64,000 nt of DNA from an uncultured Chloroflexia bacterium (GCA_963819655.1 CAWFXA010000001.1:327155-391154), one strand, 5' to 3'; positions 3,341 through 57,845 are shown, numbered from the stretch's first letter. Made by a program: numbers and translations. The notes: a model not told the origin generated them from the letters alone.

Positions 3341-4037
3341 GCTCCTGCTCCGGCCGCGCGCTCCGGCCGCGCTCGCAGGTCGCACTCGACCCGCGAATCA
3401 CCGCTGCCCGGTGCTATCGACCACGAAGACCCACTCAGTCCGCACGTTTACACCGCCCAACGACGAGATCGACCGCCGCCGAGGACCTCCGCCGTCGGAA
3501 TCACCGGCCGGCGGTGGATCTGCCGACGTGCTTCGCTGGTATCACCTCACAGCGGTGGTCCGCGTGCGGCAATGTCCCTCGCCGGGACTATGTCTGCTAC
3601 TCCTCGCGAACGGAGGAGTGACCTCCCGCAGGGACGCCTCGCAGTCGGCGACATCCTCTCGTGGGCACGACAGCCGTAGCGCCCACGGTCCCAGTTCCGT
3701 GGCGATGTAGTACTGCAGGTGGACGATGTCGTCGCCACCTGGCTCCGCGTTCATCATCTCCAGGCGGAGCGCTTCGCCGAGCTGAAGGTGGACGCGCCCA
3801 AGGGAGCGGATCCGCATCTCGGTCGCATTCGGATGGATGCCATATCGCCATCGGCTGAGCGGCGACGCAAGCGACTCGGTCTTCTCCGCCTCCCGTCCGA
3901 GGACCATACGCCGGGTCGCCAGCTTGGCAGGATCGATGTCACATCGGGCCGCCACCGACTCCGGCCCGCAGATGGAACGGTTCGAGGATGAGACTGCCCT
4001 AGTCTGTGAGCGCGGCGACAACCGTCGCGCCGCATGG

Positions 4038-4601
4038 ATGACGAGGATGGATCGAACACTCGTCGAACGGGCACGTCAGGGCGATCACGCCGCCTTCGCC
4101 ATCCTGGCGGAGTCGGCGACCGATCGGCTGTACGGCGTCGCGACGCTCATCCTTCGGGATCCTGACCGCGCCCAGGACGCGGTCCAGGAGGCGCTCATCT
4201 CCGCCTGGAGAGATGTGCGGGCCCTGCGGGATCCCGATGCGTGGGACGCGTGGATCCATCGACTCGTGGTCAGAGCGTGTTACCGAGAGGCCGACCGACA
4301 CCGTCGGCGGCGATTGATCGTCGACACGTTCGATCCGACCCCGCCGAGCATCGGCGATGCGTCGGCAGATCTCGCCGACCGCGACGAGATCGAGCGCGGC
4401 TTCCGACGGCTGACCGTCGAGCAGCGCGCGATCCTCGTATTGCACTTCCACGGCGGGCTATCGGCGGCCGAGACCGGCAACGTCCTTGGGATCCCCGAGG
4501 GCACGGCGAAGTCTCGGCTCAATCGGGCACTGCATGCGATGCGTGCGGCGCTCGAGGCCGACGCCCGATCCACTCAGCTCAATCCGGGGCGACTGGCATG
4601 A
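4038..4601 (+). CDS. ECF (sigma-70 family) RNA polymerase sigma factor
   Basis: Region 2 (DAVQEALISAWRDVRALRD) and region 4 (LTVEQRAILVLHFHGGLSAAETGNVLGIPEGTAKSRLNRA) are recognisable. Start taken at the internal ATG MTRMDRTLVERARQGD; the ORF upstream of that in the same frame looks non-coding. The stop overlaps the next gene's start (ATGA). Confidence 0.85.
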   Translation: MTRMDRTLVERARQGDHAAFAILAESATDRLYGVATLILRDPDRAQDAVQEALISAWRDVRALRDPDAWDAWIHRLVVRACYREADRHRRRRLIVDTFDPTPPSIGDASADLADRDEIERGFRRLTVEQRAILVLHFHGGLSAAETGNVLGIPEGTAKSRLNRALHAMRAALEADARSTQLNPGRLA

Positions 4602-44966: not shown

Positions 44967-46589
44967 ATGACCGACCGAACCACCCTCCAGCCACCGACCG
45001 ATGTGCCGGACATCGACGCCTACCTGAGGCGCTTCGACTGGCACCCGGAACCCGAGCTCATCGGCTATCGCGACGAGGCGACATCCCGGGCGGCCCTGGC
45101 CTCGTTGGGCGCCAAGACCTGGCACGAGGCACTGGCGTTCCTGTACGGCATCGCATCCCGGCGAGCCATGGGTGACGCGTCGCCTTATCCCGAGGCGAGG
45201 CGACGGTATTACGGGTCCGATCCCGCCGGTCCGCGCGACGGCCCGGGCGCCGCTCCGGATGGCCCCCTGCGAGCCGCCGAGGTGCTCGCCGAGTTCTCCG
45301 ACCGCCTCGCGGGCGGGCTCATGAACGCGCAGCATCCCCGCCAGTTCGGCTATTTCACACCGCCGCCGCTGCCGATGTCGATCATGGGAGAGCTGCTCGC
45401 CCAGATCGCCAACCAGGGCGTGGACGTCTGGCACGCCGGCCCGTTCGCGGCCTTCGCCGAGGAGGAGGTCGTCCGCTGGCTGTGCGACCTCGTCGGGTAC
45501 GGCCCGGGATCGTTCGGGCTGCTGACGAGCGGCGGGGTCATGGCCAACTTCATGGGCATGGCCCTGGCTCGCGACCTGCACCTTGGCCGCGCCCGCGGAC
45601 TCGCGGCGCCGCCGCGCGGCAAGGATCTCGAGGCTGCCCGTGTCTACACCAGCGACCAGACCCATTTCTCGATCGCGCGAGCGCTCGACGAACTGGGGTT
45701 CCCGCCCGAGACCCTGGTCGTGCTGCCATCCGACGACGACTTCCGCCTCCGCGGAGCCCCCCTCGCTGAGGCCGTGGCACGTGATCGGGGCGCCGGGCTG
45801 ACGCCATTCGCCATCGCCGCGGTCGCCGGTTCGACGAACACCGGCTCGGTCGATGCCATCGGGGAGCTGGCCGACGTCGCCGATGCCGAGGGTCTGTGGC
45901 TCCACGTGGACGCTGCATACGGCGGCGGGGCCCGCCTGTCCGAGCGGGACCGTGATCGCGTCCCCGACCTGGAGCGCGCGCATTCCGTCACGGTCGATCC
46001 CCACAAGTGGTTCTTCCAGGCATATGACATCGGGGGCCTGCTGGTCCGCGACGGCCGGGCGCTGGCTGCGGTATTCGGCGGCCGGGCTCCCGAGTACTAC
46101 CGCGGCGGGGAGACTCCAGGGAGCGGCGTCCTGGACTCCTTGCCTGACGATGAGCACGACCAACACGCCGACCAGCTCAACTTCTACAAGCTGTCATTCG
46201 AGGGAACTCGCCGGTGGCGGGCGCTCAAGCTGTGGATGACCTGGAAGCACCTCGGGACGCGCGGCTTGGGACGGCTCGTCGAGGCCAATGACGACCTCGC
46301 CGCCTACCTCGCCGCGCGCTGTGCGGCGGACGACGATCTGGAGGCGCTGCCGGCCGTGCCGGAACTGTCGGTGGTGTGTTTCCGGCATGTCCCTGCGGGC
46401 CTCGCTGGGGAGGCGCTCGACGCCCACCAAGACCGACTCCAGGCTGCGCTGGAGGTGTCCGGTGACGGCTGGCTGACGACGACCCGCCTGCGTGGCGCCA
46501 CCTGGCTCCGTGCCGGGATCGTCAACTACCTCTCTACTGAGGCCGACATCGACCGATTGCTCGACACGCTGCGACGACTCGCGGGATGA
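44967..46589 (+). CDS. Pyridoxal-phosphate-dependent group II amino-acid decarboxylase (DABA/tyrosine/glutamate decarboxylase family)
   Basis: PLP-lysine motif SVTVDPHKW. Gly-rich loop SGGVMANFMGMALAR. HVDAAYGG. Confidence 0.85.
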   Translation: MTDRTTLQPPTDVPDIDAYLRRFDWHPEPELIGYRDEATSRAALASLGAKTWHEALAFLYGIASRRAMGDASPYPEARRRYYGSDPAGPRDGPGAAPDGPLRAAEVLAEFSDRLAGGLMNAQHPRQFGYFTPPPLPMSIMGELLAQIANQGVDVWHAGPFAAFAEEEVVRWLCDLVGYGPGSFGLLTSGGVMANFMGMALARDLHLGRARGLAAPPRGKDLEAARVYTSDQTHFSIARALDELGFPPETLVVLPSDDDFRLRGAPLAEAVARDRGAGLTPFAIAAVAGSTNTGSVDAIGELADVADAEGLWLHVDAAYGGGARLSERDRDRVPDLERAHSVTVDPHKWFFQAYDIGGLLVRDGRALAAVFGGRAPEYYRGGETPGSGVLDSLPDDEHDQHADQLNFYKLSFEGTRRWRALKLWMTWKHLGTRGLGRLVEANDDLAAYLAARCAADDDLEALPAVPELSVVCFRHVPAGLAGEALDAHQDRLQAALEVSGDGWLTTTRLRGATWLRAGIVNYLSTEADIDRLLDTLRRLAG

Positions 46590-47026
46590 GGTCGGTATTC
46601 GCCCTGGTCCTGATCATCGCGCTGGCGACGATGGCGATCGTGGCGTGCTCGGCCGTCCCGGTCTTCGGGCGGTGCGATGTGATGCTCACGGCCCTGCCCC
46701 CGGGAACGCTCATCGACGAGACTGCCCCGTTGCCGGCCGACGCCGTCGTGCTCGCTGGCCCGGCGGATTTCGATCCGGACGCCACGAGCCTCGAGCGTTT
46801 CGAGGACAGCTTTCGGCTTTCGCTCCAACTCCGGGGCGACGCGGTGGGTCGGGTGGCCGCGCATACGGCGGGCCACCCTGGAGACCAGGTGGCGATCGCG
46901 ATCAATGGCCAAGTCGTGCTCGTGCCGATCATCCAGGAGCCCATCCTCGACGGCGTCATCGAGGTATTCCCCGGGGGGCTCGACCCGGATGGGTTCGAGC
47001 AACAGTTCGCGGGCTGCATTCGCTAG
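46586..47026 (+). CDS. Small lipoprotein (146 aa)
   Basis: ATGA overlap with the decarboxylase stop. Lipobox AIVACS. Confidence 0.5.
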   Translation: MRSVFALVLIIALATMAIVACSAVPVFGRCDVMLTALPPGTLIDETAPLPADAVVLAGPADFDPDATSLERFEDSFRLSLQLRGDAVGRVAAHTAGHPGDQVAIAINGQVVLVPIIQEPILDGVIEVFPGGLDPDGFEQQFAGCIR

Positions 47027-48117
47027 GCGGTCGGACCTTCACCCAGCGGCGCCGGTCGATAGCACCGGGACGTGACGGCCTCGACGCGACCTGACGAGGT
47101 CGCCGACTCGATCGCCAGCAGCACGTCGAGCACATGGAAGGCGAGCTCGCCGCTCGCCCGATGCGGCTCCTTCGATCGGATCCCGGCGATGAGGTCCGCG
47201 AGCCCGATCCCCCGGCCGACCGAAGCGTCGAAGCGGAGCGGTATCAGCTCCCAATCGCGGGCGCCGAGTGGCCGATAGCGCACCTCCCCGTCGAACTGAT
47301 CCGGATCGCCGAGGATCAGCGAGCCCGCGGTCCCGTGGATCTCGAAATGCGGCGCCTCACTACCCACGACATCGAACGACGCCGTCAGCCCGCCGACAGC
47401 GCCCGACTCGAAGGCGAGCGCCGCGATCGCCGTGGTCGGGACCTCGGCCGTGACGGTTCCTCCAGCACGCGGCCCAGACCCGATCGGCCGCTCGGTACCC
47501 ACACCGCGCCCGACCGCGGACGCGGCGACGATCGGGCCGAGGAGCGATACCAGCGCCGTCGCGTAGTACGGCCCGACATCGAGCAACGGCCCACCGCCGG
47601 TCGCATAGAAGATGCCCGGGTTGGAGTGCCAGGACTCCGGCCCGAGGTGGGCCACGGATGCGGTCGCCGCGATCGGAGTCCCGATGGCCCCTTCGTCGAT
47701 GAGTGCCCGCGCCGTCTGCAAGCCGCCGCCGAGAAACGTGTCCGGAGCGGCACCGACGCGGACGCCCGCGTCACGCGCCTCGGCAAGGACCGTCCGCGCG
47801 TCGTCGAGCGTCGTTGCGAGCGGCTTCTCCGAGTAGACGTGCTTGCCGGCCCGGATGGCCGCCAGCGACACGGCGGCGTGGGCTGCCGGGGGCGTCAGGT
47901 TGAGGACGATGTCGATGGTCGGGTCGGCCAGGAGGGTGTCGATGTCGACGGCCGGGAAGCCACCGGCGGTCGCGACCGCCTCGGCGCGGGTCGAGTCGAG
48001 GTCCGCGCACGACGCCAGCTGGATGATCGGCAGGCGCGCCATGGAGGGCAGGTACAAGCCTGTGACATCGCCGCAACCGACCATCCCGACCCGGGCCGGG
48101 CGTTCCTCCACGATCAC
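47023..48117 (-). CDS. Gfo/Idh/MocA-family NAD(P)-dependent oxidoreductase
   Basis: Rossmann N-terminus ARVGMVGCGDV...IRAGKHVYSEKP. GTG start overlaps the upstream gene's stop (GTGA). Confidence 0.75.
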   Translation of the reverse strand: MIVEERPARVGMVGCGDVTGLYLPSMARLPIIQLASCADLDSTRAEAVATAGGFPAVDIDTLLADPTIDIVLNLTPPAAHAAVSLAAIRAGKHVYSEKPLATTLDDARTVLAEARDAGVRVGAAPDTFLGGGLQTARALIDEGAIGTPIAATASVAHLGPESWHSNPGIFYATGGGPLLDVGPYYATALVSLLGPIVAASAVGRGVGTERPIGSGPRAGGTVTAEVPTTAIAALAFESGAVGGLTASFDVVGSEAPHFEIHGTAGSLILGDPDQFDGEVRYRPLGARDWELIPLRFDASVGRGIGLADLIAGIRSKEPHRASGELAFHVLDVLLAIESATSSGRVEAVTSRCYRPAPLGEGPTA

Positions 48118-48935
48118 GTGCCGCGGCTGCGGGCGAGCCCTCGAGCCGTCAGGTTTGCGAGGCTCTGCCGGGTCGCCGTGATGGCGGACCCCTCGACGTG
48201 GTCGAACTCGACGATGAGCCACTCGACCGATCCCTGGGCCTCCGCCGCGGCGATGGCGGGACCCGGATCGACCACTCCCGTCCCGACGGGCACGTTGACG
48301 AACGGTTCGTCGGCATAAGCCGACCGTGGCAGCTCGATCCCGTCCTTGACGTGCAGCGACACAACGCGCTCGCCGAGTCGGCTGATCACTGTCGCCGGGT
48401 CGGCCCCGCCGACGACCACCCAGAAGATGTCGACCTGGAAGTCGACGGCGTCGCCGAGGCCAGCAGCGAGGCGATCGATGACCGACGTCCCATCGACGTC
48501 GGTCATCTCCGTGTCGTGGTTGTGGTACGTCAGGCGGAGGCCGTGCGTCGCAGCCACCCCGGCGACAGTCCCGACCTGGTCGATGAGCGCACTGACCCCG
48601 CCCAGCGTCGCAACAGCACGCGGCGTGACCACCACGCGCGGCGACCCGAGCTCCGCGATGGCCGCCGCGGCCCGCGCGAATGCCATGGGATCCGCGAGAT
48701 CGGCCCATGTGTGTGAGCTCGTGACGGCGAGCCCCAGGTCCGCCAGGAGGCGCCGCGCCCCGACCGCATCACCACCCGGGACGTCGACCGTCTCGACCCC
48801 GAGATAGCCGCTGGCCGCGATCGCATCGAGCGTCACGATGTCCAGGCCCATACCCGCGCCCCCGAACCGGACCGGATCGCGGAACGTGTAGAGCTGGACG
48901 GCCAGCGGCGGCGGTTCGCGGTGCGGCTCAACCAT
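48114..48935 (-). CDS. Sugar phosphate isomerase/epimerase (xylose-isomerase-like TIM barrel)
   Basis: Family-typical LAVQLYTF...LGVETVD...LTYHNHDTEM...VSLHVKD. Confidence 0.7.
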   Translation of the reverse strand: MVEPHREPPPLAVQLYTFRDPVRFGGAGMGLDIVTLDAIAASGYLGVETVDVPGGDAVGARRLLADLGLAVTSSHTWADLADPMAFARAAAAIAELGSPRVVVTPRAVATLGGVSALIDQVGTVAGVAATHGLRLTYHNHDTEMTDVDGTSVIDRLAAGLGDAVDFQVDIFWVVVGGADPATVISRLGERVVSLHVKDGIELPRSAYADEPFVNVPVGTGVVDPGPAIAAAEAQGSVEWLIVEFDHVEGSAITATRQSLANLTARGLARSRGT

Positions 48936-49332
48936 GTCCGTGGAGCAACCCGCCGACGTGTTCGAGCAGCTTCCAGGCGACCTCGGCATCACCCTTCACG
49001 AACGCTCGGAAGTCCCAGAACGTCATGACCAGCGTCCGCAGGTCGGTCGTCGCGGTGATGGTCGCGGTCCGGACGCGGTCGCTGATGAGGGCGACCTCGC
49101 CGAAATAGCTGCCAGGCCCCACCGTGTCGACCTCTTTGCCCCCGACGCTGACGACCCCCTCGCCCTCAACGACGACGAAGAAGCCCATCCCATGGGTGTC
49201 GCCTTCGCGCACGACGACACTACCGGCAGGGAACGTGCGTTCGGTGAAGTCGCGTGCCAGGCGCTCGAGTTCTTTCCTGTCGAGGCTCGAGAGCAACGGC
49301 ACCTTGGCCAGGAGTTCGACGGACTCGGACAT
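48928..49332 (-). CDS. Stand-alone cyclic-nucleotide-binding (cNMP/CAP-effector) domain protein (134 aa)
   Basis: cNMP-binding signature GDTHGMGFFVVVEGEGVV...GSYFGEVALISDRVRTATITA. GGAGAC RBS upstream of the ATG. Confidence 0.7.
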   Translation of the reverse strand: MSESVELLAKVPLLSSLDRKELERLARDFTERTFPAGSVVVREGDTHGMGFFVVVEGEGVVSVGGKEVDTVGPGSYFGEVALISDRVRTATITATTDLRTLVMTFWDFRAFVKGDAEVAWKLLEHVGGLLHGHG

Positions 49333-49370
49333 GACGGTCTCCACCTGCGGATGATCGACGTTCAGTTGGA

Positions 49371-50690
49371 CTATCCACCGTTGCGCGAGCGCGCGGCCAG
49401 CCGGTCCTGCAGGCGGAACCACTCCCCGGCGAACGGCATGAACCAGGGCCGGCCTTCGTAGGGTGCCGGCACGAGCGGGAACCGCAGGCGCGTGAGGGCC
49501 GGCGCCTCGCCACCGGCCAGCCAGGCACCGACCTTCGTGCCGAGGTTGGTCATCAGGGCGACACCCGTTCCGCAACAGCCCATCGCGTAGGTGACGCCGT
49601 CCTTCGTCCGCCCGACGTGCGGCATCCGGTCGAACGTGAAGCCGACGTTGCCGCCCCACGCGTACTCGATGCGGTAGTCGGCCATCTGCGGGTGGACCTC
49701 GACGAGACCCTTCCACAGGATCGCCGCCGTCTTGTCGATGGTCGTGGGCATGAACGACGCTCGACCGCCGAAGACCATCCGACGGTCCGCCGACACGTGC
49801 CAGTAGTACAGGAAGTTCTTCGTGTCGAAGAAGGCGCGCCCCTTGGGCGACAGCTCGTGGGCGATGTCCTCCGGGAGCTGCTCCGAGGCGATGATGAACG
49901 AGCCGATCGGGATGATCCGTCGGCGGAGCGATGGCACGACGCCGTCGGTGTAGCCGTTGGTCGCGACGAAGACATCGCGAGCGCGGATCGCGCCGCGCGT
50001 GGTCTCGACCCTGAACGTGCCATCCCCCTGGCGCCGGATCGAGCGGGCACGCACGCCCTCGTGCAGGTCTGCGCCGGCTCGGTCTGCGGCGGCGGCCAGG
50101 CCAGCGAAATACCGACCCGGATGCAGCAGCCCGGTGGCCTCGACCACGAGCGCGCCGTAATACGCATCGCTGCCGATCTCCTCGCGGATGCGCTCGCGGG
50201 GCACGACCGTCGAACTGACACCGACCGACGCCAGGCTCTCACGCGCATGCTCGAGCTCGGGCGCGTGAGCGGGCGCGTATGCAAGCTCGAGGTGCCCGAT
50301 CTCCCTGAAGTCGCAATCGATGGACTCCTCATCGATCAACCGCTTCACGAGCCGGTAGGAATCGAGCGTCTCCTGGTAGAGCGCCTTGCCGGTCTGGATC
50401 CCGTAACGCTTGATCAGCTGGCTGGCGCTCCACTTGTAGCCGGCGTGGACGATGCCGCCATTCCGCGTCGACGCGCCCCATCCCAGGGTATGGGCCTCGA
50501 GCAGCGTGACGGCGACGCCCCGGCGTGCCAGCTCGCGGGCGGCCATGACGCCCGCGTAACCACCACCGATCACGACGACGTCCGCCTCGGCGGGCAGATC
50601 GCGGCCGGACCGGTCTGGGAGTGGTGCCATCGACGCCTGCCAGAAGGCGCGGCGTTCGAAGTCGGTGTTCAGAGGCGGGGTCGCGGCCAT
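49371..50690 (-). CDS. FAD-dependent oxidoreductase (DadA/PuuB/glycine-oxidase-like amine oxidase family)
   Basis: Dinucleotide-binding motif DVVVIGGGYAGVMAARELARRG. DAO-family C-terminal region. Confidence 0.8.
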   Translation of the reverse strand: MAATPPLNTDFERRAFWQASMAPLPDRSGRDLPAEADVVVIGGGYAGVMAARELARRGVAVTLLEAHTLGWGASTRNGGIVHAGYKWSASQLIKRYGIQTGKALYQETLDSYRLVKRLIDEESIDCDFREIGHLELAYAPAHAPELEHARESLASVGVSSTVVPRERIREEIGSDAYYGALVVEATGLLHPGRYFAGLAAAADRAGADLHEGVRARSIRRQGDGTFRVETTRGAIRARDVFVATNGYTDGVVPSLRRRIIPIGSFIIASEQLPEDIAHELSPKGRAFFDTKNFLYYWHVSADRRMVFGGRASFMPTTIDKTAAILWKGLVEVHPQMADYRIEYAWGGNVGFTFDRMPHVGRTKDGVTYAMGCCGTGVALMTNLGTKVGAWLAGGEAPALTRLRFPLVPAPYEGRPWFMPFAGEWFRLQDRLAARSRNGG

Positions 50691-50750
50691 GGTCGCGAGC
50701 GTAGCCGAGGCGAGCGCGACCCCGCACGACGTCGCGCCGGATGGCCCGGT

Positions 50751-50957
50751 CTAGGCGGTGTGAGGAAGCTCCCAGCCCGGCTCAGGGACGATCACCCGGT
50801 TCGCGGTTTCGCCGTGCGTTTCGGCGAGGTGTGCGAAGAACCGCGCGCGACGATGGGAGACGATCCGGGCGTCCCGGCACGGACAACCCTCGGCCAGGCA
50901 ACCCGATCGAGGCTCGCGTCCTGCCCTCTGCTCGGTCCTGGTCTCGTTGGTGTCCAT
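50751..50957 (-). CDS. Small Cys-containing ORF (68 aa), possible
   Basis: GGAGACGAGGA RBS upstream of ATG MDTNETRTEQ. CLAEGCPC motif. Sits in a 550-bp divergent intergenic region. Weak support. Confidence 0.25.
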   Translation of the reverse strand: MDTNETRTEQRAGREPRSGCLAEGCPCRDARIVSHRRARFFAHLAETHGETANRVIVPEPGWELPHTA

Positions 50958-51239
50958 GGTCCTCGTCTCCGCACCTTCTATGGCGCTGCGGCTCAGGATT
51001 TCGTTCGATGTTCCTGACGACTCTGGTACGAAGATGACGTCGGGTCGGACGATTCCGTTGCAGCGCTAGAGCCCGTTGTCCGAAATCGGACATGCGACGG
51101 CACGCACGACCGAACCTGGACGTCCTGACCGGCATCAGATGATCGAACGCGCCGCAGGAGGGAGCCGATCTCACCCGCGACAGACCGATCGCTCGTCGAA
51201 CGGGCTCGCAACGGCGACCTCGACGCGTTCGAGGAGATC

Positions 51240-51719
51240 GTGCGTGTCCGGATGGATGGCGTATACCGACTGAGCGTCGCGATCCTCGGCGACGAGGCCG
51301 ATGCGCGCGATGCCGCCCAGGACACGTTCATCACGGCGTGGCGGCAGATCCGAGCCGTGCGCGATCCGGGCAAGTTCGACGCGTGGCTCCAGCGCGTGGC
51401 GGTCAACGCGGCGCGGATGACGCATCGCTCGCGGCGACGTCGTGGCGTCCGCGAGATCCCGCTAAGCCGGCTCGGAGAGGCGCCGACCTCCGGGCCGTCT
51501 GTCGAGCTGGCGGACACCGATGGCCGCGTGCTCGATACCGCGATGCGGGCCCTCGAGATCGACCAGCGATCGATCCTCGTCCTGCACCACCTCGAGGGCC
51601 GATCGATCGTTGAGCTGGCGGCGATCCTCGATGTCCCGACGGGGACCGTGAAGTCTCGTCTGCACGCCGCTCGGCGGGCGCTCCAAGCGGCGATCGACGC
51701 CGAAGCGATCGATCGATGA
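51240..51719 (+). CDS. ECF sigma factor, paralogue of the 4038-4601 gene; N-terminus unresolved
   Basis: Regions 2-4 are clear (DAAQDTFITAWRQIRAVRD; LHHLEGRSIVELAAILDVPTGTVKSRLHAAR). The conserved N-terminal LVERARNGDLDAFEEIV is encoded upstream of the first in-frame start codon. The only upstream ATG (51139) is in another frame. Confidence 0.75.
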   Translation: MRVRMDGVYRLSVAILGDEADARDAAQDTFITAWRQIRAVRDPGKFDAWLQRVAVNAARMTHRSRRRRGVREIPLSRLGEAPTSGPSVELADTDGRVLDTAMRALEIDQRSILVLHHLEGRSIVELAAILDVPTGTVKSRLHAARRALQAAIDAEAIDR

Positions 51720-54700
51720 CGTCTCCGATCGCTCCGCGCGAGCCTTGGGACGACCGACGGCTGGCGGCGGCGTTCACGGCCCGTGCCGCGAAGACCCGGA
51801 CGCCCAACGAGCTGGTCGGGGATGTCGTGGCGCGCGTGCGGACCGAGGATCCGCCGATGCCCGTGTGGCGCCGGTGGCTGCCAGCCGCCGCGGTCGTGGT
51901 CCTCGCGCTCGGCGTGGTCGCGGGTGGGGTCGCGTTGTCGGGCGACGTTCGCGGCCAAGGTCTGTTCCGAGAAGGCCCGAGGGCCGACCTGAAGACGCTC
52001 GCAACGGGCGAGTTCGCCTTCGATTATCCAGCCGCATGGCACGGATACGACGCGTCGGCTGCGGGCAGCGGAATCTCGTCGGTCGCCGTGCTTGGCACGC
52101 AATCGGTGGAGCGGCGCTGCGGCAACGAGCGGCATGTCGACCTCAACTGCGTCTACGAGCAACGCCTCGAGGCAGGGCAGATCCGTCTGTTCGTCGGGAC
52201 CGGCGCCTATCGAGGCCAGACGATCGAAGACCGGGCGCCCATCGAGAACGGGACTAGCTCTCGGGTCCGGGTGGGAGGCATGCCGGCCATCTTCGACGAG
52301 TTCGACGCTCGACCGGACTCCTTCTACGGTGAAGACACGCTGATCCATTGGGAGATCGCACAGCCCGGGTCGGCCGGCACGAACGTCGTCCGCCTCGAGG
52401 CGATGCTCAGAGAGCCTGGCGTCACTGAGGGCCGAAGGCAGCTCGAGGCGTTGGTCGCGAGCTTCCGCTTCACGAACGGCCCCGACCCGTCCCCGCCGCC
52501 GACACCCGAGCCGACGCCGACCGCGACTCCGCCACGCCTCGCCGACCTGCGAGTGATGACTGTGGAGGAGCTGATCACCGCCACGGAGTCGCCGACGCCG
52601 GAGGAGGTCATCGTCCGCGGCTGGCTGGGACGCTCGAATGCCATCTTCGACTGCAACATCGAACCCGACCCGCATCCGCTGATCCCGCGTTGCGAGGAAT
52701 TCGGCCTGTCCCTGTTTCAGGATCCGCCGTTCGTCGAGCGCGGAACCCTCGAGCCTAGCTTGCCTCATGTCGTGCCCATGCTGCGGATCGACGCCCACGC
52801 GGACGTACCAGCCATGCCGGGAATCGCTGTGGAGGTCTTGGCAGTGGGCCACCTCCTCGACCACCGCTGGACGACGTGTCCGGAGGCCCAGCAGGCCGAC
52901 TGCAAGGCGCGCTTCGTGATCGATCGGGTGGTCGCCGCCGACCAGCCATTGTGGGACGACCTTCCGACTCCGTGGGCGAGCCCGGATGGCTTGCCCGTGA
53001 GTGGGCCGTCCGAGGCGGTCGGGGTCCTGTCCTCCATCGTCGGTGGTGTGACTGTCGTGTCGATCGGCGTCGCCGACGCCGATGCTCTCCGATCGATCGA
53101 GTGGCAGACGCGCGCCAAGCCGGATCTGCAGACGTCGTGGGTGATCCGCGCCCTCATCGGAAGGGACGCCGAGCCGATCGCGCGAACGTTCCTGGTCGGC
53201 GACGAGGGCCACTCGACGGTGCTCGAGGTGACCGAGACGGGCCTCGTCGACTTGATCGGCCAGCCCGCGTCCGCCCCGCCGACCGAGGTGCTCGGCCTCC
53301 CGGTCATCTCCGTCGAGGAGGCGATCGCGATCCGCGATGCCGGCCGCGACGACCGCGAGATCGCGGTCCGTGGCTGGTTCCCGCCGTCGAGGTCACTCCG
53401 CTGCGCCTACCCAAGCCCCCCGATCACGTTCTTCCTAGAGCCGTATTGCCAGGACGGATTCTCGGTGCTCATGGCAGGTCCGGAGACCTTGGCCACCGGC
53501 CTGCCTGGAGGACCCCATATATCGGTGGACCTCCATGACCTTGAAATGGCCTGGTATCCCACGGCCGACTCAGTCGAAATGGTGGCGATCGGCCACTTCG
53601 ACGACCGGCGCTCGAACTGGTGTGATGCGTCTCGGGTCGACGCGTGTCGTGACCGCTTGGTCGTCGATCAGGTCGCGTGGGCGGCGGGCGCGGCGCAGCC
53701 GCTGAGCGTCGTCATGAGGACAGGGACGGGCGATCCGGCGTTTGGTCCCGTCGACGCCGCGATCACCGCCACGACTGAGGCCGCGATCCTGTCATCGGCT
53801 GCGTATCGAGCGTGGGAACTCATGGAGATCGAGCCGTCCTTGCGCGATGGGCGGCCCGGCATCACCGACGAGCCGATCCTGTGGAGCGTTCAGGTCCTGG
53901 AGGACGAGCGCGCCGCTACCTACGTCGTGGTCGATGGAACCGATCGGGTCTATCGCGTGGAGACGGACGGACAGACGGTCCAAGTCGGTGGCACGCCGCT
54001 CGAAGATCCGGCGCGCTCGTGGCCGCCAGAGGGTGTCCTGGACGTGCCGATGCCGGAAGGTGGTACGGGCCTCACACCCAAGGCTGGCGTCATCGACCGG
54101 AGCGGGTTGCTCGTGGAGGCACGAGCCGCAGGCGAGGCAGATCCGGGTCGGCCCATCACCGAGCTGGACCCCGGGGAGATGGCGATCGTGCAGGCGGCGC
54201 CGGATACGGTCGTCGCCTACTGGAACGGCTCGCTGTGCGACGATCGGTTCGTCCTGACCCTTTACGGTCGCGGTCCATCCGAGGCGCCCGATCGACTCGA
54301 GTTGCGCGGCGAGCGCGCCGATCTGTGCCGCCTGGCCCTCGTCCGCTACGGGATCCGGCTCCGCTTCAGCCAGCCAGTCGACGCGGCCTCCATCCGCGGC
54401 TGGGACCGTGTCGGCACACCGTTCGAGGCATTCCCGCCCGTCGACTCCACGGTCGTCTTCCTCCCGAAGGACGGCGGGTTCGAGCTTCCCAAGGTACGTG
54501 CGGCGCTGATCGACCTGAGCGGCCGGGTCACTGCCGTGCGTGCGATCGGGCCAGATGACCCGAGAGTGCTGGACCTCGAAGCCCAAGGGAAGGTCGTCTG
54601 GATTCGTGACCGGCAGCTCGTCGGGCGCTACCACCTCTACTGGACCGGCGGCATCTGCGACGGCGACTCGGTGGTGACGATCGACGCGACGTTGTCGACG

Positions 54701-54838
54701 GTCAGCGTCCACGCGACGCGGCAGGAGCCGTGTGATCTCACGGGCGTTGAGCGCCGCTTGGTGATCGACGTCGACGGCGCCCTGGACCCCAACGCCATCG
54801 AGACGATCTATACCGAGACCGTCACCGGCGCCTCATAA
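51716..54838 (+). CDS. Anti-sigma factor (1040 aa): N-terminal anti-sigma domain, one TM helix, large Cys-containing repeat ectodomain
   Basis: ATGA overlap with the sigma gene. The N-terminal 55 aa are paralogous to the anti-sigma at 4598. TM helix LPAAAVVVLALGVVAGGVAL. Internal ~130-aa repeat (aa ~276-410 versus ~524-655). Confidence 0.7.
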   Translation: MTSPIAPREPWDDRRLAAAFTARAAKTRTPNELVGDVVARVRTEDPPMPVWRRWLPAAAVVVLALGVVAGGVALSGDVRGQGLFREGPRADLKTLATGEFAFDYPAAWHGYDASAAGSGISSVAVLGTQSVERRCGNERHVDLNCVYEQRLEAGQIRLFVGTGAYRGQTIEDRAPIENGTSSRVRVGGMPAIFDEFDARPDSFYGEDTLIHWEIAQPGSAGTNVVRLEAMLREPGVTEGRRQLEALVASFRFTNGPDPSPPPTPEPTPTATPPRLADLRVMTVEELITATESPTPEEVIVRGWLGRSNAIFDCNIEPDPHPLIPRCEEFGLSLFQDPPFVERGTLEPSLPHVVPMLRIDAHADVPAMPGIAVEVLAVGHLLDHRWTTCPEAQQADCKARFVIDRVVAADQPLWDDLPTPWASPDGLPVSGPSEAVGVLSSIVGGVTVVSIGVADADALRSIEWQTRAKPDLQTSWVIRALIGRDAEPIARTFLVGDEGHSTVLEVTETGLVDLIGQPASAPPTEVLGLPVISVEEAIAIRDAGRDDREIAVRGWFPPSRSLRCAYPSPPITFFLEPYCQDGFSVLMAGPETLATGLPGGPHISVDLHDLEMAWYPTADSVEMVAIGHFDDRRSNWCDASRVDACRDRLVVDQVAWAAGAAQPLSVVMRTGTGDPAFGPVDAAITATTEAAILSSAAYRAWELMEIEPSLRDGRPGITDEPILWSVQVLEDERAATYVVVDGTDRVYRVETDGQTVQVGGTPLEDPARSWPPEGVLDVPMPEGGTGLTPKAGVIDRSGLLVEARAAGEADPGRPITELDPGEMAIVQAAPDTVVAYWNGSLCDDRFVLTLYGRGPSEAPDRLELRGERADLCRLALVRYGIRLRFSQPVDAASIRGWDRVGTPFEAFPPVDSTVVFLPKDGGFELPKVRAALIDLSGRVTAVRAIGPDDPRVLDLEAQGKVVWIRDRQLVGRYHLYWTGGICDGDSVVTIDATLSTVSVHATRQEPCDLTGVERRLVIDVDGALDPNAIETIYTETVTGAS

Positions 54839-56180
54839 GCGACCCGCCCCGCGGCCATCGTTAGCAGCACCCGGCCTGCGAGGTCCATCCCGAGCAACGG
54901 CGTGTTCTTGCCCTTCGAGAGCAGCGCGTCGGCGGACGGCGACCAGCGCTCCGAGCGATCGAAGACGACAAGGTCCGCCTGCACCCCTTCGACCAGCCCG
55001 CGCGACCGGCCGATCACAGCCGCCGGCCCCACCGTAAGTGCCGCCACCGCCCGGCTGAGCGTGAGCTCGCCCGCGTCGACGGCCGCAAGCACGAGTCCGA
55101 GGGCCGTCTCGATGCCACCGATCCCATTCGCGGCGAGCCCGAACTCGACGGCCTTGTCGACCTCGGTGTGCGGTGCATGGTCGGTGGCGATCGCATCGGC
55201 GGTCCCATCGGCGAGGGCCGCGAGGCACGCCAGGGCATCGGATGGGCTACGCAATGGCGGATTGACCCGGAGCGAGGACGCGTACGGCGACGCGACGATC
55301 GCTTCGTCGCGCCACGGATCGCCGTCCGCACCTGGCTCCCATGCGAACCGCCGCGCCCCAGCGACCCACTCGTCGGTGAGGGCGAGATGGTGGGGCGTCA
55401 CGTCGCATGTCACGGGGAGTCCGGCAGCCTTCGCGCGACGGATCAGCTCCAGGGCGCCGGATGTCGAGACATGGGTGAGGTGGAGCCTTGTCCCGGGCAC
55501 GTCACGGCGCACGTCAGCGAGGATCGCGAGATCGCGGGCCACCGCGGCCTCCTCGGCCGACGCGGGCCAGCCGCGCAGCCCGAGCACGGTCGCGACGATC
55601 CCGTCGTTCGCCTCGGCGCCGTCGGTCTGGGTCGCGTCCTCCGGGTGATCGACCACAGGCAGTCCGAGCGCTCCCGCGTACGCGAGCGCGTTCCGCAGGA
55701 TCTGCGCGGAGCGGACTGGCGAGCCGTCGTCGGAGAAGCCGACGACCCCGGCATCCGCCAGCTCGCCGAGCGCCGCGAGCGTCTCCCCTGCCCGACCGAC
55801 GGTCACCGCGCCATGCGCCAGCAACTCGACCGGCGATCCGGACGACGCGGCGGCCCCGCGGATCGCCGCGAGCACGCCCGGCTCGTCGAGCGCCGGGGTC
55901 GTATTCGGCATTGCGCAGACCGTCGTGAAGCCGCCGTGCGCGGCGGCGGCGAGACCAGTGGCGACCGTCTCGGCATCCTCGTTGCCCGGCTCCCGGAGGT
56001 GCGCGTGCAGGTCGATGAAGCCCGGGGCGACCACGACGCCGGTGGCGTCGACGCCGTCGGCGTCCGAGCCCTCGAGCCAGGTGACCGCCTCGAGAATCCC
56101 GTCGCGCACGACGATCTCGCCCGGCCCCTCACGGCCGCTCGCCGGATCGACGACCCAGACCCGGCTCAGATCGAGGTCGG

Positions 56181-56184
<4 letters not shown>
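54808..56184 (-). CDS. pyrC: Dihydroorotase
   Basis: Metal-binding motifs FIDLHAHLREPG and DHAPH. GTG start overlaps the pyrB stop (GTGA). Confidence 0.85.

Positions 56185-57845
<1,661 letters not shown>

Follow-up and report, generated by a model that had tools for sequence, protein, structure and literature searches.

Among the main routes by which bacteria signal across the membrane are ECF sigma/anti-sigma pairs, and to our knowledge neither the sensed signal nor the sensor domain has been established for most ECF groups. In a 64-kb stretch of DNA from an uncultured Chloroflexia bacterium (the window), an ECF sigma factor gene is followed by a gene for a 1040-aa membrane protein. This arrangement raised the question of whether the large protein is an anti-sigma factor, as originally predicted, and what its repeated, cysteine-containing ectodomain might do. 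The features considered are shown in Table 1. With moderate confidence, we favor the interpretation that this locus encodes an ECF sigma/membrane anti-sigma pair with a disulfide-stapled OB sensor ectodomain, belonging to the Chloroflexota (Limnocylindria-like).

Table 1. Positions of the observed and proposed features in the window, with residues numbered on the 1040-aa protein.
Feature	Position	Strand	Remarks
Conserved block GAACC-N16-CATCA, candidate ECF-type autoregulated promoter (-35/-10)	51112-51137	+	
Shine-Dalgarno AGGAGGG then ATC, proposed non-canonical sigma start	51156-51170	+	
ECF sigma factor gene	51168-51719	+	183 aa if start is ATC; Pfam Sigma70 domains
Membrane-protein ORF, probable anti-sigma	51716-54838	+	1040 aa, uninterrupted
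Cytoplasmic N-terminal tail, residues 1-54	51716-51877	+	W-D-D-x-R-L-x-A-A-F; two predicted helices; no Cys
Single transmembrane helix, residues 55-73	51878-51934	+	Hydrophobic run 57-74; AlphaFold model helix 55-73
Domain X, residues 84-250	51965-52465	+	PsbP/MOG1/DcrB-like α/β domain; one Cys pair (135, 145)
OB-Cys module copy 1, residues 271-412	52526-52951	+	Proposed disulfides Cys 313-326, 388-396
F-type small α/β domain copy 1, residues 416-515	52961-53260	+	Cys-free; iterated HMM
OB-Cys module copy 2, residues 521-660	53276-53695	+	HMM domain E 1.4e-46; proposed disulfides Cys 563-578, 636-644
F-type small α/β domain copy 2, residues 662-765	53699-54010	+	Reciprocal HMM convergence with copy 1
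C-type all-β domain copy 1, residues 786-902	54071-54421	+	Cys pair 841, 871; repeat z = 7.9
C-type all-β domain copy 2, residues 908-1040	54437-54835	+	Cys pair 981, 1006; all-β in model
Convergent 3'-end overlap, anti-sigma gene/dihydroorotase (pyrC-like) gene	54808-54838	.	31 bp

The product of the sigma gene matched the Pfam families Sigma70_r2 (1.1e-12), Sigma70_r4_2 (3.6e-14) and Sigma70_ECF (5e-5), and, like ECF sigma factors in general, it consists of σ2 and σ4 only, within a length of about 160-200 aa. Its NCBIfam scores were computed on the 159-aa ORF that a mechanical ORF list begins at GTG 51240, not on the 183-aa protein beginning at ATC; on that ORF, the best model, TIGR02983 (SigE-family), reached 100.7 bits, below its cut-off of 141.55, and the superfamily model TIGR02937 alone passed. 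Neither TIGR02983 nor any other NCBIfam equivalog therefore assigned the protein to an ECF subgroup above a curated cut-off. We propose that translation begins instead at the non-canonical ATC. The sigma frame holds no ATG, GTG or TTG between the stop codon at 51126-28 and position 51240, the conserved coding sequence begins at this ATC, and the indels among five loci all lie upstream of it. An ATG at 51139 was rejected as the start, being out of frame in the window and missing in locus L004. The block GAACC-N16-CATCA, common to the window and loci L001, L002, L004 and L005, may tentatively be taken as an ECF-type autoregulated promoter. It matched once in the 64-kb window (0.21 expected), where we found no further promoter-motif matches, and at least one match occurred in 17 of 100 shuffles. 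The -35 assignment is uncertain because the spacing of the block is not kept in locus L010.

The stop codon of the sigma gene overlaps the start codon of the membrane-protein gene by 4 bp (ATGA), and this overlap was found in all seven loci with a complete upstream gene (the window, L001, L002, L004, L005, L006/L007 and L010). It is kept despite identities of just 38-75% or less among the membrane proteins. The sigma factors are the more conserved partners, with identities of 90, 86, 68 and 72% compared to 75, 66, 38 and 47%, respectively, for the membrane proteins. This gene arrangement couples the two genes translationally and fits the adjacency to, and co-transcription with, an ECF sigma gene that is generic to membrane-bound anti-sigma factors. 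No thioredoxin- or Dsb-like gene adjoins the pair.

The original prediction allowed that the membrane-protein ORF might prove to be broken in a corrected assembly. The ORF is intact, and it is not an assembly artefact, because full-length orthologues of 1045-1055 aa are present in independent assemblies. A genome scan using the single 1040-aa protein as query returned two genomes only. One apparent sigma-anti-sigma fusion (P0031) was discarded, since its contig contained many split genes, suggesting frameshift errors, and a second protein (P0222) looked chimeric in the same manner. The 31 bp shared by the convergent ends of this gene and the dihydroorotase gene, previously described as an unusual overlap, are real. 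The identical overlap is present in the orthologous loci L001 and L002, and a 22-bp gap takes its place in the more distant L004; the feature is lineage-conserved but unremarkable. No terminator-like site was found within the overlap.

With its N terminus inside the cell, the 1040-aa protein crosses the membrane once and has an ectodomain of ~965 aa; all of its 14 cysteines lie beyond its one hydrophobic segment. Among 182 family members that we examined, 149 share the order of a cytoplasmic tail of ~35-70 aa, one transmembrane helix and then the modules described below, and nearly all place the transmembrane segment at a similar position (roughly residues 45-57). The tail motif WDDxRLxAAF is conserved across these 149 members, and we propose that the tail is the sigma-binding region. 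However, the tail had no match in Pfam or NCBIfam, and a PDB profile search with it yielded chance matches only (E >= 0.13), with none to solved anti-sigma chains. A class I anti-sigma domain (ASDI, including ZAS) was likewise not matched in Pfam or NCBIfam at E <= 1 anywhere in the 1040-aa protein, nor was one found in 73 further members, for which Pfam returned nothing useful. Class I domains are four-helix structures of at least 50 aa (mean 101), with the motif Hx3Cx2C in ZAS, whereas this tail has ~54 aa, two predicted helices and no Cys. Thus the designation of a giant anti-sigma factor holds for the single-pass architecture and the coupling to an ECF sigma gene, but the tail matches no known anti-sigma domain. 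From gene context and architecture, we conclude that the protein is probably an anti-sigma factor.

We then evaluated the proposed repetition of a ~130-aa module in the ectodomain. Alignment of residues 266-420 with residues 511-670 gave a Smith-Waterman score of 124, compared to 31.5 ± 5.1 for 500 shuffles (z = 18), none of which reached this score. BLASTP of the whole protein against itself did not report the repeat, which was detected by the segment-wise alignments and shuffles. The HMM bounds of the two modules (Table 1) are near those predicted earlier (276-410 and 524-655), and the copies are about 30% identical. In the full-length model, their secondary-structure elements follow one another in the same order. 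The spacers that follow each copy are also homologous to one another, as iterated HMMs started from them converge and their predicted topology is the same. The duplicated unit is therefore larger than was first thought: it comprises ~245 aa and two domains, the Cys module and a small Cys-free α/β domain. The 64-kb window contains no additional copies of the module.

The module had not been recognized as a described domain family, a view that would fail if the repeats proved to be a well-known domain. At the family level this view was correct, as the module had no match in Pfam or NCBIfam at E <= 1 and none by PDB profile search at E <= 10. At the fold level it was not: the module is a variant of the OB fold, for which we looked for a small, closed barrel of some five β-strands, a capping helix and structural similarity to bona fide OB proteins. 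The OB fold is among the commonest folds, and the module is not a new one.

The module family contains at least 727 clusters at 50% identity; the details given here come from the 182 members examined, with 300 module copies. It has been seen so far in Chloroflexota (Limnocylindria) genomes, a range that is taken from four named records, and wherever its members have a source name on record, that name is only "hypothetical protein". The number of modules per protein varies from one to three, and because two is the commonest state (121/182), duplication is not special to the 1040-aa protein. Across the family the ectodomain is modular and mosaic, as expected for a sensor. Shorter forms include a protein of 425 aa with two OB modules (O-O) and single-module proteins of ~200 aa. 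At least 44 small membrane-anchored proteins have the OB module but lack the proposed sigma-binding tail, and one of them is encoded at a sigma-free locus. The module is therefore not confined to anti-sigma factors and does not by itself imply anti-sigma function.

These small proteins bear on whether the 1040-aa protein might instead be an envelope protein that is coexpressed with the sigma factor, which would simply drive its production, and that serves in cell-wall or surface binding or in scaffolding, with the sigma factor being regulated in some other way. Single-module paralogues that lack the cytoplasmic tail occur at the same locus both in the presence and in the absence of sigma, suggesting a sigma-independent envelope role for the module, and the lack of a detectable anti-sigma domain would fit such a role. 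However, a tail of ~45 aa is conserved in exactly the sigma-coupled forms and is missing from the sigma-independent short forms, the 4-bp coupling was found in all loci examined, and the neighbourhoods of these loci contained no other conserved candidate regulator. We consider this envelope role improbable. We can also envision, as a possibility that we hold only tentatively and consider doubtful, that the OB module is a new, lineage-expanded extracytoplasmic sensor domain, and that the WDDxRLxAAF tail represents a minimal anti-sigma domain of a new class. The module would have begun as a small membrane-anchored envelope protein, which still occurs alone at this locus; recruitment into anti-sigma factors, with duplication and shuffling, would have come later. 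The short paralogue would act in some genomes with the anti-sigma factor, as a co-sensor or decoy, making a three-part signalling unit. A search of the 480-bp gap that precedes the sigma gene revealed no remnant of the short OB gene.

Each module copy had been described as having two conserved Cys pairs, consistent with stabilization by disulfides, and the wider family agreed well with this view. In a first alignment of 53 copies from 37 homologues, the four columns corresponding to Cys 313/326/388/396 (copy 1) and Cys 563/578/636/644 (copy 2) were Cys in 53, 52, 53 and 53 copies. Over all 300 copies in 182 proteins these match positions were 94-99% Cys; all four were present in 280 copies, the second pair had been lost together in 15, and the Cys count was even in 298. 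The number of ectodomain Cys was even in 145 of 149 proteins, with the cytoplasmic and transmembrane part free of Cys in 147 of them. One module copy has its second Cys replaced by a new Cys nearby, and extra Cys in inserts are always paired. These sequence patterns indicate that the four Cys form two independent structural disulfides, as is usual in exported proteins, rather than a Cys4 metal site. We accordingly consider it very unlikely that the module is a metal sensor in which the four Cys, perhaps together with the invariant His, coordinate a metal or cluster in the manner of MCM or RPA70, whose OB folds carry zinc. A single metal site would call for conservation of the four Cys as a set, but here the second pair can be lost while the first is kept, the second Cys can be exchanged for a neighbour, insert Cys are paired, and the location is extracytoplasmic, with even Cys counts throughout the ectodomain.

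The same observations allowed us to weigh whether the disulfides might be the signal itself. Thiol or reductant stress, or failed oxidative folding, might reduce or isomerize the OB-module disulfides, destabilizing the ectodomain, giving access to a site-1 protease and releasing the sigma factor. Nothing in the module is more conserved than the four Cys, and there are precedents among single-pass regulators, as the redox state of extracytoplasmic Cys affects proteolysis of ToxR, as with TcpP, in Vibrio cholerae (PMC6242745) and of PdeC in E. coli (PMC5897775). Those proteins, which are not anti-sigma factors, carry a single Cys pair within a domain of an unrelated type, whereas here the Cys appear to be general structural staples in several domain types. 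Paired Cys are found in every type of ectodomain module that contains Cys, the PsbP-like and C-type domains among them, which is what structural disulfides generally look like and does not point to a dedicated switch. Moreover, the rest of the module is kept in the 15 copies that lack the second pair, and the sigma/membrane-protein pair has no thioredoxin- or Dsb-like neighbour. We therefore regard a redox switch as unlikely, and structural disulfides as the preferred explanation.

The remaining parts of the ectodomain were examined by similar means. Domain X is an α/β sandwich with a fold similar to that of PsbP; it had no sequence-level family match in Pfam and is present in just 36 of the 182 family members. 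The iterated F-type HMM recovered 222 copies from 145 proteins, one of these copies being residues 661-757 in the 1040-aa protein. Both F-type copies have the predicted element order α-β-α-β-β-β (AlphaFold model) and the motif LS...G..L...EP...W.VR.L...T.LV.DG, and the best PDB profile hit, to the N-termini of M23 peptidases, was not significant (E 0.2). A related pair of C-terminal sequences had been suggested to represent a third, diverged element. This suggestion was not borne out, as hhalign gave a probability of 0.4%, with no profile similarity; instead, the region is a tandem of an unrelated β-domain, the copies of which align with a Smith-Waterman score of 69, compared to 28.4 ± 5.2 for shuffles (z = 7.9). 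The HMM for this C-type domain found 109 copies in 87 proteins, with two Cys in 107 of the copies; the best value from a PDB profile search was E 1.3, which is not significant.

We infer from these data a model in which the two-helix WDDxRLxAAF tail would hold the sigma factor inside the cell, while an array consisting of the PsbP-like domain, two units of a disulfide-stapled OB domain and small α/β domain, and two β-domains is displayed outside. The OB modules, which are the family-defining element, may be the sensor units that bind a ligand or respond to envelope status. Sensing of a signal outside the cell would then switch off the anti-sigma factor, most probably through regulated proteolysis, and the freed sigma factor might also drive its own conserved upstream promoter.

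No general principle is changed by these findings. Rather, they define an unannotated family whose domain boundaries are clear, whose fold is assigned with confidence and whose disulfide pattern can be tested, in an uncultured and poorly studied lineage of soil and freshwater (Limnocylindria). Four new domains (the OB-Cys module, the F-type and C-type domains and the cytoplasmic tail) are thereby defined for use in curation. The 425-aa O-O and ~200-aa single-module forms provide a compact model in which to search for a ligand and to ask whether a two-helix tail of ~45 aa is sufficient to hold an ECF sigma factor.

The 1040-aa protein, with its large fused ectodomain, differs from CnrY, which is nearly devoid of an ectodomain and depends on a separate sensor, CnrX. 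CnrY of Cupriavidus metallidurans has a short sigma-binding part followed by one transmembrane helix and is encoded beside its own ECF sigma gene, and class II anti-sigma factors in general have two α-helices in fewer than 50 aa (PMC7406223). The tail may resemble class II members such as CnrY and NepR in its size and in its predicted number of helices, which the AlphaFold model places at residues 13-26 and 31-43 with a pLDDT of only 62-67, and no similarity was detected between the tail and class II or solved anti-sigma sequences.

Single-pass proteins with large extracytoplasmic ligand-binding modules are also found among the RsgI-type anti-σI factors and RsiV of Firmicutes, and for RsiV the binding of a ligand sets off regulated intramembrane proteolysis (PMC6066255, PMC6582324). 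These systems differ from the one described here in their sigma families, anti-sigma domains and sensor folds (CBM, PA14 and the RsiV fold, as opposed to OB, PsbP-like and other folds). A precedent for an OB fold outside the cytoplasm is a protein of the YgiW family that binds antimicrobial peptides (PMC6370654). The module had no Pfam match to the YgiW/BOF family at E <= 1, and PDB profile searches gave 0 hits at E <= 10 and did not recover 1nnx. YgiW/BOF proteins (E. coli YgiW, 1nnx; V. cholerae SipA) have ~90 aa, whereas the module has ~140 aa with two insertions that would be closed by disulfides, as well as VRGW and GH(F/L)DDR motifs and an N-terminal helix, and it is tethered to the membrane and repeated. 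Finally, compared with PsbP/MOG1/DcrB/LpqN-like domains, domain X is distinguished by its position as the membrane-proximal domain of an anti-sigma-like protein.

The 1040-aa membrane protein is encoded directly downstream of an ECF sigma gene (Pfam σ2 and σ4 domains), whose stop overlaps its start by 4 bp. The same arrangement was found wherever the upstream gene is complete (the window and the related loci L001, L002, L004, L005, L006/7 and L010), in L008 an upstream ORF that is truncated but sigma-like in sequence also overlaps by 4 bp, and the coupling holds across membrane proteins of 292 to 1051 aa with identity down to 38%. These genes form a translationally coupled pair in which sigma is better conserved (90/86/68/72% identity) than its membrane partner (75/66/38/47%). 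A cytoplasmic tail of 35-70 aa followed by one transmembrane helix was present in 149 of 182 family members, and the tail carries a conserved motif, W-D-D-x-R-L-x-A-A-F, followed by P-x-x-L. Yet the tail matched none of the Pfam and NCBIfam anti-sigma models and none of the solved anti-sigma chains. With the corrections given below, the originally predicted anti-sigma factor with disulfide-stabilised sensor modules is the best available interpretation; we describe the protein as probably an anti-sigma factor, class II-like but unclassified, and assign it to neither class I nor class II.

Features of the locus of sigma and the probable anti-sigma factor, and domains of the 1040-aa protein
Feature	Position	Strand	Remark
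Non-coding gap, divergent DAO gene to sigma gene	50691-51167		480 bp
Conserved block upstream of sigma	51112-37		GAACC-N16-CATCA
Shine-Dalgarno sequence	51156-62		AGGAGGG
Proposed sigma start	51168		ATC
Sigma gene	51168-51719	+	
Large ORF	51716-54838	+	1040 aa; GC3 0.83, on par with adjacent genes
Convergent overlap	54808-54838		31 bp
Longest dihydroorotase ORF	54808-56607	-	599 aa
Carbamoyltransferase gene	56181-57227		
Hydrophobic segment	residues 57-74		
Domain X (PsbP/MOG1/DcrB-like)	residues 84-250		
OB-Cys module (O), copy OB1	residues 271-412		HMM limits
F domain, first copy	residues 416-515		
OB-Cys module (O), copy OB2	residues 521-660		HMM limits
F domain, second copy	residues 662-765		
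C-type domain, first copy	residues 786-902		
C-type domain, second copy	residues 908-1040		

The protein has a single hydrophobic segment, to which all 14 of its Cys residues are C-terminal, and its order from N to C terminus is cytoplasmic tail, transmembrane helix, X, [O-F], [O-F], C, C. The internally duplicated Cys module that had been proposed at residues ~276-410 and ~524-655 was recovered, as Smith-Waterman alignment of residues 266-420 with 511-670 gave a score of 124, against 31.5 ± 5.1 for shuffled sequences (z = 18). The regions that follow each module are also homologous to one another, iterated HMMs from either retrieving the other, and they have in common the motif LS…G..L…EP…W.VR.L…T.LV.DG and are predicted to have their secondary-structure elements in the same order. 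What was duplicated is thus a unit made of the Cys module and a small Cys-free α/β domain, ~245 aa in all and longer than the original prediction described. The C-terminal pair, suggested there to be a diverged third copy, is a genuine repeat as well (z = 7.9, with reciprocal HMM matches), but belongs to a separate, all-β domain type whose profile does not resemble that of the Cys module (hhalign probability 0.4%).

That the Cys module is not a described domain family was borne out by the sequence searches: it had no match in Pfam or NCBIfam at E ≤ 1, was not recognised by Pfam in 73 further family members, and, when its profile was run against all PDB sequences, stayed unmatched at E ≤ 10. 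AlphaFold modelled the module confidently from 39 copies (pLDDT 90.3, pTM 0.84). The modelled module begins with a strand and a helix; Cys 1 and Cys 2 close a 14-residue loop that follows the first, long strand of the barrel (…VRGW…), and Cys 3 and Cys 4 close a helical hairpin that separates the final two strands (…GH(F/L)DDR…C…C..RFV(V/I)D…). The best-conserved residues other than Cys are a His (100%), two Asp (99% and 96%), two Gly (98% each) and an Arg (88%).

All four Cys positions were occupied in 280 of 300 module copies. The second pair had been lost together, with the first retained, in 15 copies, and a single Cys was missing in only 5, one of which (in protein P0013) has a new Cys close by; two others have an additional Cys pair within an insert. 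Cys counts were even in 298 of the 300 modules and in the ectodomains of 145 of 149 complete family proteins, 147 of which have a Cys-free cytoplasmic and transmembrane part; domain X and each C-type domain hold exactly one Cys pair, and F-type domains none. Such a pattern is the one that structural disulfides show in exported proteins, suggesting that the two Cys pairs noted in each copy act as two independent structural disulfides, and it speaks against four Cys serving as a single metal site (Cys4). A single-pass, N-in topology is supported by the absence of Cys before the ectodomain and by their occurrence in pairs within it. It is possible that the disulfides instead form a redox switch whose reduction triggers proteolysis, as the precedents of ToxR and PdeC (PMC6242745, PMC5897775) might suggest, but this is less likely than a structural role because Cys pairing is general to all Cys-bearing ectodomain types and some modules manage without the second pair. 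The ectodomain is modular, disulfide-stabilised and built around OB folds.

An exhaustive profile search over 1.84 billion representative proteins placed 727 clusters in the module family at E ≤ 0.001 (395 at E ≤ 1e-10), whose members, where named on record, are always called 'hypothetical protein'. Among 182 proteins examined, 121 had two modules, 55 had one and 5 had three; as two is the usual state, the duplication is no peculiarity of the window protein. Architectures included O-F-O-F (29), O-F-O-F-C (24), O-O (21), O-F-C (14) and O-F (13), others besides, with the window layout X-O-F-O-F-C-C being the largest type (7 cases). Neither of two apparent sigma-module fusions supports a natural fusion: P0031 (L003, 4001-6382) lies on a contig where many genes are broken up, pyrC and pyrB included, indicating frameshift errors, and P0222 is joined at a common 'REI' motif and looks chimeric. 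Identity between the window protein and its orthologues P0002-P0007 ranged over 61-89% for X, 56-83% for OB1 and 49-75% for the second C-type copy, and the best-conserved domain differed from pair to pair. Within the orthologue set, first module copies match first copies and second match second, so the duplication is old. Domain identities are mosaic (OB1 83% and X 67% in one orthologue, OB1 56% and X 89% in another), pointing to recombination, domain exchange or modules that evolve at different rates.

A second search recovered at least 44 proteins of 172-211 aa, each consisting of an N-terminal membrane anchor (residues ~5-25), a linker and a single OB-Cys module; the WDDxRL tail was found in none of the 44. 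In locus L009, such a short OB gene (4001-4591) has the DAO gene and pyrC as its direct neighbours, with no sigma gene, at the position of the sigma/anti-sigma pair in the window, and in L010 (4001-4618) and L011 (68-685) it occupies the DAO/pyrC place upstream of sigma and a 503-aa anti-sigma-like O-O-F protein. The window has a non-coding gap where these relatives have the short gene, and tblastn detected no remnant of it there. The OB-Cys module is not restricted to anti-sigma factors, and since the short forms are tail-less and one occurs at a locus without sigma, it probably has an independent function related to the envelope; two histories would fit, recruitment of the module into anti-sigma factors or origin of the short form as a derived paralogue.

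The large ORF converges on a dihydroorotase-type amidohydrolase gene, followed by genes for aspartate carbamoyltransferase and a PyrR-like phosphoribosyltransferase; its divergent 5' neighbours encode a DAO-type FAD oxidoreductase, a xylose-isomerase-like TIM-barrel protein and a GFO/IDH/MocA oxidoreductase. The nearest genomes are MAGs labelled Candidatus Limnocylindrales and 'uncultured Chloroflexia', and one further family member likewise comes from Ca. Limnocylindrales. The order DAO / (short OB) / sigma / anti-sigma / pyrC-pyrB-pyrR was retained in the window (44967-50690 and 54808-57790), L004, L009 and L010 although the anti-sigma proteins are only ~38% identical, and is a stable landmark for locating orthologous loci except in L005 to L007, where it was not retained. 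The upstream flank differs, with a pyridoxal-dependent decarboxylase in the window and L009 and sugar-type oxidoreductases in the window and L004. The convergent overlap, initially thought unusual, is real and exactly as long in L001 and L002, but it is absent from L004, and a search for a terminator-like structure within it found none. The overlap is a lineage trait of a compact locus, and nothing further is apparent in it. The longest dihydroorotase ORF is extended at its N terminus by an Arg/Gly-rich stretch of ~140-190 aa that matches no domain. Because its orthologues in L009 and L010 are called as 484 aa, the true start is probably near 56260, overlapping the end of the upstream carbamoyltransferase gene.

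The sigma ORF as mechanically called starts at GTG 51240, but conserved coding sequence extends further upstream (…PATDRSLVERARNGDLDAFEEIV…), and no in-frame ATG, GTG or TTG occurs between this GTG and the stop at 51126-28. Five loci have in common GGAGGG-N4-5-ATC followed by indel-free coding sequence, with indels confined upstream of the ATC; three loci have a nearby ATG that is not in frame, and a fourth lacks it. As no canonical start is in frame and indels lie only upstream of the ATC, the simplest reading of this alignment is that the sigma gene starts at a non-canonical ATC behind a strong Shine-Dalgarno sequence. The conserved block further upstream (GAACC-N16-CATCA…TCGAACGC), whose spacing is not kept in L010, may be an autoregulated ECF-type promoter.

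We propose a model in which the two-helix tail would sequester sigma, while the OB units, possibly with the PsbP-like and C-type domains, would bind an extracytoplasmic ligand or envelope component. Extracytoplasmic OB folds do bind envelope-stress ligands, one example being SipA of the YgiW family, a binder of antimicrobial peptides (PMC6370654). A signal would then eliminate the anti-sigma factor, the simplest route being cleavage at site 1 and site 2 of the kind known from RsiV-/RseA-type systems, and the released sigma would transcribe from its own upstream region.

What is new here, in an uncultured lineage, is a sensor family of OB type that had not been described, together with a minimal cytoplasmic tail that is so far unclassified. 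These can help domain annotation and offer a way into ECF signalling in Chloroflexota. A specialist would not be surprised, since anti-sigma ectodomains are commonly modular and specific to a lineage. Ahead of the membrane helix, two helices are predicted at residues 13-26 and 31-43 with low confidence (pLDDT 62-67), and the tail as modelled would resemble class II anti-sigma factors, CnrY among them, in size and helix count (PMC7406223).
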